Under the pieces are notes generated by a model. It did no database searches and had not been told where the DNA came from. It worked only from the letters and a program-made list of their open reading frames with translations. Below, one piece after another: positions 55,049 through 60,087 of a DNA stretch of 64,000 nucleotides. Each line of letters opens with the position of its first letter. The stretch's first letter is position 1. The DNA lies in NCBI RefSeq assembly GCF_016903815.1, contig NZ_CP069973.1, one strand, 5' to 3'. The translations under genes and the position numbers were made by a program. This DNA is from Escherichia coli (GTDB taxonomy: Bacteria > Pseudomonadota > Gammaproteobacteria > Enterobacterales > Enterobacteriaceae).

Positions 55049-55054
55049 TCGGCA

Positions 55055-55081
55055 GCTCCCCCAAAGTTAAGGTGGGGGAGA
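55055..55081. terminator. bidirectional hairpin between convergent nhaR and the fimbrial operon
   Basis: GCTCCCCC-AAAGTTAAGGT-GGGGGAG. Confidence 0.6.
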
Positions 55082-55085
55082 TAGA

Positions 55086-56045
55086 TTAGTTGTACATTAC
55101 CACGATTTTGACTCGGCTCATTATTTGCCCGCTTGAGACATTATTTCCATATGTACGCGGGCGAATAAATAGAGGAATCTGATTACTTCCTTCATGGGGA
55201 TGCTGAAAAGAGTAGTAATTGCTTTTACCATACTGCATTTCATTCGTACCATCATTGGAGAGTTGAAAGCCTATTTGACCCGCACCGTCCTCACTGTTTT
55301 CTAAATCATTTTTTAATATGCTGGTTCCTGAATCCTGTATCGTCACTGGCTCAAAGTAATATTCAACATCACTAGGTTCAAAAACTAATTCACCTTGCTC
55401 ACCCTGGATACAGTCAAATCTTATATGATGAAACTGATAAATTTCATTATTGATACGAGACAGTACAAATCGTCCAGTGTCGATGGATTGATCTTCAAAA
55501 CCACAGGTCATTAAATTTACCTGTAAAATAGTATTTAAATTAAAATTAAAGCGGACGCTATTACAATTAGTATTATTCCCTGTACATGAACTCACTTCAA
55601 TTTCGAACAGCAAAGGAAAAGGAGTTCCTGGAAAAATATCTGCGGTGTCAGAACTATCTGATACAGATGCGATAGAATATGGAATGGTGAAATTTATCGC
55701 AGATAGCATTTCTTCTAAATTATAAGATAACTTCCCTGGAAGCTCTATTTTTTTACCGTCAGATTCAAAGGGGAAATTAATAATGTAATGACGACTTCCG
55801 ACTTTAAACCTTAAAGCGTTCTGTGTTAAAAAATGAACTTTAATGGCGTTGGTCGTCTCTTGCAAGTCTGCACACTCAATGATATTCCCGGTGTTTTCAA
55901 TTTTCTCGGCAGTTAGATTACCTTTCATACTCAGTGGCTTGAGTATATATGTTCCACGTTGTTCACCGACATTGGTCACTGCACAGGGAGCACTTTGCAC
56001 AATAAAAGAATATAGACTTAAGGTGATTAATAAAAGCCACTTCAT
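55086..56045 (-). CDS. putative fimbrial tip adhesin / minor subunit (last gene of the chaperone-usher operon)
   Basis: 319-aa ORF with signal peptide MKWLLLITLSLYSFIVQSA; larger than a pilin, consistent with a two-domain adhesin; 12 bp after the usher. Confidence 0.6.
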   Translation of the reverse strand: MKWLLLITLSLYSFIVQSAPCAVTNVGEQRGTYILKPLSMKGNLTAEKIENTGNIIECADLQETTNAIKVHFLTQNALRFKVGSRHYIINFPFESDGKKIELPGKLSYNLEEMLSAINFTIPYSIASVSDSSDTADIFPGTPFPLLFEIEVSSCTGNNTNCNSVRFNFNLNTILQVNLMTCGFEDQSIDTGRFVLSRINNEIYQFHHIRFDCIQGEQGELVFEPSDVEYYFEPVTIQDSGTSILKNDLENSEDGAGQIGFQLSNDGTNEMQYGKSNYYSFQHPHEGSNQIPLFIRPRTYGNNVSSGQIMSRVKIVVMYN

Positions 56046-56057
56046 AGTAAACTCCTT

Positions 56058-58508: not shown

Positions 58509-58520
58509 GACTTTTTCCTG

Positions 58521-59204
58521 TTATCGTGCGGCGATTTTACTATGGATGTTATTCCCGTAATCATCAACTACCGTTAGTTCATATTCTGAGGCGTTGTTAT
58601 TTTTTAATGTAATGTCGTTATTCGAAAATGGAGGCAGTAGGATACTTTCATTATTAACTTTCACGTTTTGTGCTTTGATAGTTGTAACTGTTATCCAGTT
58701 GGCTGTTTCATTGTTTATTGAGATGGCGTTGTTTTTCTTTTTGATATTTAATTGAGAAAGGCTTTTTTTATCTACCGGAGCTATTCCGCTTGGACGCCAA
58801 AGTAACTTTATACGGTTTTGCAATGCAAGTTTAATTTTGTTCTTTCCTGCATTTTGTGGGTTGTTTGGAGGGATATCCAGAACATTTAGATAAAATAAAC
58901 TTTCTTTATTGTGAGGCAAATTGTTTGGCATTTTTCTTATTTTAAGTTGTTGGCCGGAACCACCTGCTACACGACTTACTGGCGGTGTGAGAATAAATGG
59001 GACCTGAATTTTTTCTGGCGCGATAGTGGTGTTCCCATCATCGATCCATGCCTGAATCAAAGAGGCATTTTTACTTTGATTCATTAACTGTACGAGAACT
59101 TCTCTGCTTTTTTCCGGATAAATAATGCGCGTACCATAGATGACCACACCGGCATGAACAGGTAAAATAAAAAATGACATCAGTAATGCTGTTATTATTC
59201 TCAC
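58521..59204 (-). CDS. fimbrial periplasmic chaperone (PapD/FimC family)
   Basis: 227 aa; signal peptide then GVVIYGTRIIYPE at the mature N-terminus, and proline-rich PFILTPPVSRV segment. Confidence 0.8.
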   Translation of the reverse strand: MRIITALLMSFFILPVHAGVVIYGTRIIYPEKSREVLVQLMNQSKNASLIQAWIDDGNTTIAPEKIQVPFILTPPVSRVAGGSGQQLKIRKMPNNLPHNKESLFYLNVLDIPPNNPQNAGKNKIKLALQNRIKLLWRPSGIAPVDKKSLSQLNIKKKNNAISINNETANWITVTTIKAQNVKVNNESILLPPFSNNDITLKNNNASEYELTVVDDYGNNIHSKIAAR

Positions 59205-59253
59205 GTAATCACTCCGTAAATAATACCGGTAGCAGAGCTACCGGCAAAAAACG

Positions 59254-59787
59254 TTAATCTGCACTGATTTTAATCGTTACGGTTGACTCTACGGAGCCTT
59301 TTGTAACAGGATTGCCACTTGTGCGGGCATATTGTGCACTTAAATTAAGAAAATATTGACCAGAGCCATTATCTTTCAGCGGTGTTTTTAACCCCGGTCT
59401 CATTCTGGTCAAAGTTCCATCATCGAGGAAAATGGCAAAGCCAATGTTCTCAGCAGTTCCTTTATTCAGCGTAAAGTTATTAGCATCAAACTCTGATGCT
59501 AGCACTTCGATACTTGGGGCTGTATTGCCGTCACACTGAATTTCTAAGTCATGAGAGGTTGAACCGGTTTTTAAAGTATAGATTTCATTATTGATAAGTT
59601 GATTCATTGCACTGGTTACAACATCTTCGACAACGATATCTGTTGTCGAATCACCATTAACAAAGTAACACGTTGTATCAACAACTTCTCCTCTAATGGT
59701 TAGCGTTCCTTGATCGACATCCTTGGCGAAGGTTGTTGCGCTAAACATCAACGTTGTCGCAACGAAGGGAATAATATACTTTTTCAT
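59254..59787 (-). CDS. fimbrial major subunit (type 1 / P-pilus family pilin)
   Basis: 177 aa; signal peptide, mature N-terminal GTLTIRGEVVDTTC with conserved Cys pair; first gene of the operon. Confidence 0.8.
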   Translation of the reverse strand: MKKYIIPFVATTLMFSATTFAKDVDQGTLTIRGEVVDTTCYFVNGDSTTDIVVEDVVTSAMNQLINNEIYTLKTGSTSHDLEIQCDGNTAPSIEVLASEFDANNFTLNKGTAENIGFAIFLDDGTLTRMRPGLKTPLKDNGSGQYFLNLSAQYARTSGNPVTKGSVESTVTIKISAD

Positions 59788-60087
59788 AAATCATCCTTAA
59801 TTAACTGGTATGGAAGGTCACTCGTTGTCAAACCCGATTATGTGATCAGGTTGTTATTATTTAGATTAATGTTTAAATTTTTTAATTTCTTGATGTGAAG
59901 TTGATGAAACTTTGAAAATTTAATATTCTTAATTATTCCCTTCTTTATAAGAAGAGCAAGGTGCCATCATTAGAGTGACAGAGTGGGATGTTTAAGATCA
60001 TGCTTCAGATTATTTTTTGTTTCTCTGCAGTGAATTAATAATCATCACAGATAATTTCATTCTGAAATTACTTCTTTTGGGAGTGTT

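Follow-up and report, generated by a model that had tools for sequence, protein, structure and literature searches.

The described systems closest to the operon analysed here are the gamma4 chaperone-usher fimbriae Yeh of Escherichia coli (yehDCBA) and Stc of Salmonella, together with the E. coli type called 'Yeh-like', which the scheme of Wurpel et al. (2013) defines by the usher's phylogeny and by where the locus lies. For strain PCN033, a published study gives locus tags 0019-0021 as the Yeh-like locus and puts the type in gamma4, and the published amplicon for typing the Yeh-like usher is 688 bp. We analysed a 64,000-nucleotide stretch of E. coli contig NZ_CP069973.1 (the whole stretch is referred to as the window), in which a four-gene chaperone-usher operon lies on the minus strand between nhaR and rpsT. 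The evidence presented below makes it very probable that this operon is an intact allele of the Yeh-like type in a minimal four-gene layout. The type is already catalogued, and finding it here is routine.

The operon between nhaR and rpsT

The list of open reading frames (ORFs) holds four in a row on the minus strand at 55086-59787, encoding a pilin, a chaperone, an usher and an adhesin-like protein, with spacers of 49, 12 and 12 bp. The features of the operon and its leader, in the direction of reading, are as follows.

59788-60087, minus strand: leader of 300 bp, 29.7% GC, with an AAGGA ribosome-binding site
59885-59856, within the leader: weak sigma-70-like match, a consensus match only
59254-59787, minus strand: gene of the major pilin, 177 amino acids (aa), PF00419 match at 9e-9, ratio of nonsynonymous to synonymous divergence (dN/dS) 0.08
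59224-59246, minus strand: perfect 10-bp hairpin in the pilin-chaperone spacer, z = -3.5
58521-59204, minus strand: gene of the PapD-like periplasmic chaperone, 227 aa, GTG start
56058-58508, minus strand: gene of the outer-membrane usher, 816 aa, with PapC_N, Usher (9e-167) and PapC_C matches
55086-56045, minus strand: putative tip adhesin gene, 319 aa; predicted parts are a signal peptide, an N-terminal receptor-binding domain (about residues 19-176) and a C-terminal pilin domain (about residues 177-319)
55748-55754, minus strand: A7 homopolymer, nt 292-298 of the adhesin gene, codons GGT AAA AAA ATA

A first-pass annotation, made from the letters of the DNA alone, had proposed a complete four-gene chaperone-usher operon with spacers of 12 to 49 bp, its ORFs belonging to fimbrial families. 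The ORF list and hidden Markov model (HMM) matches to three families confirmed the operon; a family was found for the pilin, the chaperone and the usher, whereas the fourth ORF matched none. The pilin has a hydrophobic N-terminus and is a major subunit of the PF00419 family with a signal peptide; the NCBIfam YehD model matched it at 3e-36 (124.7 bits), just below the cut-off of 136. The chaperone matched PapD_N (2.5e-40) and PapD_C (1.8e-6) over its full length, so that both immunoglobulin-like domains are present, and its nearest NCBIfam models, StcB and PRK15218, each scored under their cut-off. The usher scored 1489 bits against NF011763, for which the curated cut-off is 933, with model positions 1-826 covered.

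The four ORFs contain no frameshift and no premature stop. Over 54900-62300 there is 100% identity to strain 7/2 of E. coli, which was isolated from human faeces in Sweden; RefSeq annotates the same four coding sequences as intact there and labels the adhesin 'hypothetical protein'. The operon is AT-rich relative to its surroundings (39.5% GC, against 52.0% for the rest of the window), and the leader even more so, both as initially described. No invertible-element signature was detected in the leader, which carries only short repeats of chance grade, and an Rfam search of the operon matched no family.

Assignment to the Yeh-like type relied on the usher lineage and the chromosomal position. 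Of the Yeh-like usher typing primers, one maps without mismatch at 58249-58268 and the other with a single mismatch at 57581-57599, and the predicted product is 688 bp, as published. The usher gene is 97.3% identical to that of Sakai at the nucleotide level, and the operon occupies the nhaR-rpsT location. The whole operon is orthologous to Sakai ECs_0019-0024, with the neighbouring espX1 corresponding to ECs_0025, at 96.6-97% nucleotide identity. The locus is thus loc1 of Low et al. (2006), or O-island 1 (z0020-z0025) of O157:H7 EDL933, and the resemblance to loc1 noted in the first-pass annotation proved correct.

The adhesin had been called the least predictable component, and it was: the 319-aa protein had no match in Pfam, NCBIfam or PDB sequences. 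Hexokinase matches in the PDB sequence search were dismissed as chance, nothing else appearing at E <= 1. When 1.84 billion representative proteins were scanned exhaustively with HMMER, only 43 matched, about 12 of them full-length relatives at 20-43% identity and the remainder E. coli fragments. In a word-indexed search of proteins, the matches were limited to near-identical fragments from E. coli and a single protein with 45% identity, and a narrower adhesin alignment run against species-representative genomes recovered only two related loci. Two of the full-length relatives, P0012 (43%) and P0014 (32%), and a Citrobacter portucalensis gene (30%) are encoded at the canonical yeh locus, in the place of the adhesin, where the gene order is metG-mrp-yehE-pilin-chaperone-usher-X-rcnB, X being the adhesin relative.

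AlphaFold2, run on an alignment of 14 sequences, modelled the adhesin as two beta-rich domains (predicted local distance difference test, pLDDT, 83; predicted template modelling score, pTM, 0.69). The best PDB matches of this model in Foldseek were full-length FimH, FocH, PapG, CfaE and CupB6. The model contains one 7-residue helix, and the mature protein is devoid of tryptophan. We therefore predict with confidence a FimH-like two-domain fold, in which a receptor-binding domain precedes a C-terminal pilin domain. At the level of prediction, this is the architecture of a two-domain tip adhesin, and we call the protein an adhesin because of its operon position together with its predicted structure. 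The protein has no solved or annotated relative.

The chaperone-usher pathway is established and provides the basis of the mechanism that we propose. All four products would be exported via signal peptides, and the chaperone would cap subunits in the periplasm. The usher would accept the adhesin first and then polymerise pilin beneath it by donor-strand exchange, so that the N-terminal beta-sandwich domain of the adhesin would be displayed at the fibre tip and could bind a receptor there. The hairpin 3' of the pilin gene may also contribute. Perfect hairpins of 10-14 bp are found in the same spacer of all four Yeh-type operons compared, the other three being yeh-locus operons (L012:3455-3555, L018:2750-2820 and L020:3735-3810). 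Their sequences are unrelated; it is the structure that is conserved and not the sequence. Intercistronic hairpins that act as attenuators or stabilisers are known from other pilus operons, and by analogy the present one is likely to be an intercistronic attenuator or mRNA stabiliser, which would probably lift pilin output and let pilin outnumber the assembly proteins.

Distribution, decay and age of the locus

The distribution of the operon was determined in 5,426 complete E. coli genomes. Adhesin-gene DNA of any length was present in 4,222 of them (78%), at the same site, and at least 80% of the gene in 3,633. The segment comprising pilin, chaperone and the 5' part of the usher gene was much rarer (1,202 genomes, 22%). 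The form encountered most frequently is a deletion variant that lacks 2,442 bp, corresponding to window positions 57390-59831, and with them the pilin, the chaperone and the first 373 usher codons; it was present in about 40% of genomes in a spread sample. A 5.5-kb contig, CASFSC010000151.1 (L019), carries the deletion variant at 97% identity and is filed in an 'uncultured Alistipes sp.' bin; this is almost certainly bin contamination.

Lesions were surveyed in 14 four-gene loci taken from evenly spaced rankings, three further O157:H7 rows being left out. Eight loci were without lesion and six carried one. The lesions recorded are an A7-to-A8 frameshift and a stop at codon 170 in the adhesin gene, and stops at codons 216 and 634 and a frameshift in the usher gene; in the deletion-variant lineage the adhesin gene also shows, at nt 141, a -1 deletion. 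Wherever the pilin and chaperone genes had been retained, they were free of lesions. With all four genes in 22% of genomes and 8 of 14 such loci free of lesions, an intact operon is expected in about one in ten complete genomes.

Nei-Gojobori dN/dS across loci ran from 0.06 (chaperone) and 0.08 (pilin) to 0.12 (usher) and 0.15 (adhesin). Synonymous divergence between the window and Sakai was 0.05-0.10 for the operon genes, to be compared with 0.15 for nhaR and 0.06 for ribF, and no integrase or other mobility gene, no tRNA and no flanking repeat was found at the block that holds the operon. Taken together, the synonymous divergence, the dN/dS values, the fixed position and the lack of mobility genes point to an ancient acquisition, inherited vertically, functional for most of its history and repeatedly lost. 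The operon would then be an old paralogue of yeh/stc that has been passed down at nhaR-rpsT together with espX1 under purifying selection, and that has been removed time and again by point lesions, by the 2.4-kb deletion or by replacement. A locus so long resident, under purifying selection and yet lost independently again and again, exemplifies the way in which E. coli lineages trim their adhesin repertoire.

Several points weigh against a functional Yeh-like pilus operon. One paper calls the role of Yeh-like fimbriae undetermined, and the literature covered holds no expression or assembly data for the locus. A promoter scan of the leader gave nothing above background, with fewer matches than shuffled sequence. 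The adhesin assignment leans on a structure predicted from just 14 sequences. Finally, lesions in 6 of 14 four-gene loci and loss of the pilin and chaperone from most genomes suggest that selection on the operon is weak or niche-specific.

It is possible, although we consider it rather unlikely, that the operon is a cryptic relic, intact by sequence but permanently silent, in the course of being lost and forming no pilus in nature. The frequency of independent lesions and of the large deletion would agree with this. H-NS binds AT-rich DNA of such composition, and at 29.7-39.5% GC the leader and operon have the compositional prerequisite for H-NS silencing, the leader in particular being the kind of DNA that H-NS binds; silencing of the locus by H-NS, which the first-pass annotation had called probable, is a conjecture. 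Low et al. (2006), in the form in which their work is summarised elsewhere, reported promoter activity in O157 only for F9 and Yeh. Against a permanently silent operon, dN/dS values of 0.06-0.15 across lineages imply long-term purifying selection, every locus that retains the pilin and chaperone has them intact, and more than half of the four-gene loci sampled are free of lesions.

The operon shares its low-GC block with a second gene. The first reading placed the operon in the nhaR-rpsT interval, which is right, and overlooked espX1, which is present there as well.

60088-61509, minus strand: espX1, type III secretion system effector EspX1 by RefSeq name, 473 aa, 31% GC, with weak pentapeptide-repeat matches
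55031-61933, no strand assigned: variable block between nhaR and rpsT, replaced in some lineages

The leader extends as far as the espX1 stop codon, and espX1 lies directly upstream, in the same orientation as the operon. espX1 was found in 3,597 of the 5,426 complete genomes, with a dN/dS of 0.37, above that of the fimbrial genes. The allele of the window is uncommon: only 92 genomes match it at 99% identity or more, and most are at 90-95%. In genomes of the strain 4/0 type, a glycoside hydrolase of family 31 (GH31) and a major facilitator superfamily (MFS) transporter lie between 55031 and 61933 in place of espX1 and the operon, and the nhaR-rpsT slot therefore holds alternative cargo. In K-12, IS1 replaces 55224-61727, and 138 bp of the 3' end of the adhesin gene are kept. 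This remnant identifies K-12 as a deletion derivative and not as an empty site filled by IS1; the first-pass annotation was right that K-12 carries IS1 here.

The composition of the block (37% GC, where the remainder of the window has 52%) and the different cargo found in the same slot in some lineages would be expected of a strain-specific adhesin island acquired recently by horizontal transfer. Horizontal acquisition as such, which had been argued from composition, is reasonable. A recent event is very improbable, since the locus has the same position in 78% of complete genomes, lacks an integrase, tRNA or flanking repeat, has diverged at synonymous sites to the same extent as nhaR and ribF, and has left a remnant in K-12. 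Elsewhere in the window, a mokC/sokC type I toxin-antitoxin locus is present at 52179-52481 on the minus strand (Rfam sok, 120.5 bits); it is known and unrelated to the operon.

The A-tract of the adhesin gene and FmrA

Where the window has A7 in the adhesin gene, O157:H7 and the pig strain PE164 have A8, which shifts the frame in both. Because the two A8 alleles are no nearer to each other than to A7 alleles, these sequences hint at recurrent slippage at the tract. In Sakai the adhesin gene (L005:1827-2787) is split by the extra base into a 108-aa 5' ORF and a 227-aa 3' ORF.

According to the accounts given in reviews, z0021 in O-island 1 is FmrA, which represses the expression of flagellar class II genes; deletion of z0021 is described there as raising motility, and its overexpression as abolishing it. 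Nothing but the frameshifted adhesin gene lies between nhaR and the usher gene in O157. Judged from position, z0020 and z0021 must therefore be fragments of this gene. That the last gene of the operon is mainly a regulator like FmrA and not an adhesin would suit the motility effects and the position of z0020/z0021 inside the frameshifted gene, but it is hardly probable for an intact 319-aa protein that has a signal peptide and a confidently predicted FimH-like fold of two domains, the C-terminal one a pilin domain, and whose gene stands where a Yeh-type operon has its adhesin, as do its homologues at yeh loci.

Comparison with known systems

Two different things go by the name 'Yeh-like' in published work. 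PDB entry 8V9V, described as the 'Yeh-like adhesin YhlD receptor binding domain', matched, at E 2.4e-111, Sakai ECs_2914 (L013:245-1279), which is yehA of the canonical yeh locus. What has been published on the structure and tissue binding of Yhl is therefore not about the product of the window operon. Identification of 'Yhl' of PMC12778044 with the window locus was rejected on this ground, and on the lack of the conserved tryptophan from the window adhesin. Likewise, 'ECs0022' and 'ECs0024' in PMC3175480 are names of small RNAs and irrelevant to the operon.

The receptor-binding domains of YehD and YhlD (9N4G and 8V9V) carry two antiparallel helices as a flap, in which W142/W143 is the conserved residue (PMC12778044, Sci Adv 2026). 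The window adhesin matches neither domain in sequence, and its model has neither the flap nor the tryptophan. A far-reaching extension of this difference, to which we give little credence, is that the 319-aa protein represents a third receptor-binding class in the Yeh/Stc group, without flap or conserved tryptophan, that its A7 tract would serve as a slippage switch, and that the 108-aa fragment made from A8 alleles might be FmrA (z0021), which would tie loss of the pilus tip to flagellar control.

Of the described loci, loc1/O-island 1 of O157:H7 is the nearest. It shares with the window the nhaR-rpsT slot, the gene order and the usher typing amplicon. The two differ in integrity: in Sakai and other O157:H7 strains the A8 frameshift splits the adhesin gene, and RM6067W has an usher stop in addition, whereas the copy in the window is intact. 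The common O157:H7 reference copy is thus defective, and intact alleles such as that of the window are suited to functional study of Yeh-like pili.

For the adhesin, the only detectable family is that of the Citrobacter-like yeh/stc adhesins (P0012, P0014 and the C. portucalensis gene at L020). These are 30-43% identical to it over the full length, have 319-322 aa and occupy the same position in their operons. They differ from it in belonging to other genera and to the canonical metG-mrp-yehE...rcnB locus, where they stand beside orthologous Yeh ushers. Similarity to Sakai YehA was not detectable by BLASTP (E 3.6).

Finally, the operon as a whole was compared with Yeh and Stc. A search for a homologue of yehE (DUF2574) near the window operon found none, the sole match being the pilin signal peptide. 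Yeh and Stc lie between metG and rcnB, whereas the window operon lies between nhaR and rpsT. Compared with the yeh loci of Sakai, Citrobacter portucalensis and another enterobacterium, the window operon shows 59-61% identity in the usher and 53-59% in the chaperone, whereas yeh-locus ushers of different genera are 72-75% identical among themselves. Both location and usher identity thus mark the window operon as an old paralogue of Yeh/Stc, not as their orthologue. It has the pilin, chaperone, usher and adhesin layout of these gamma4 operons, a hairpin after the pilin gene as they do, and the models YehD, StcB and PRK15217 as its nearest in NCBIfam.

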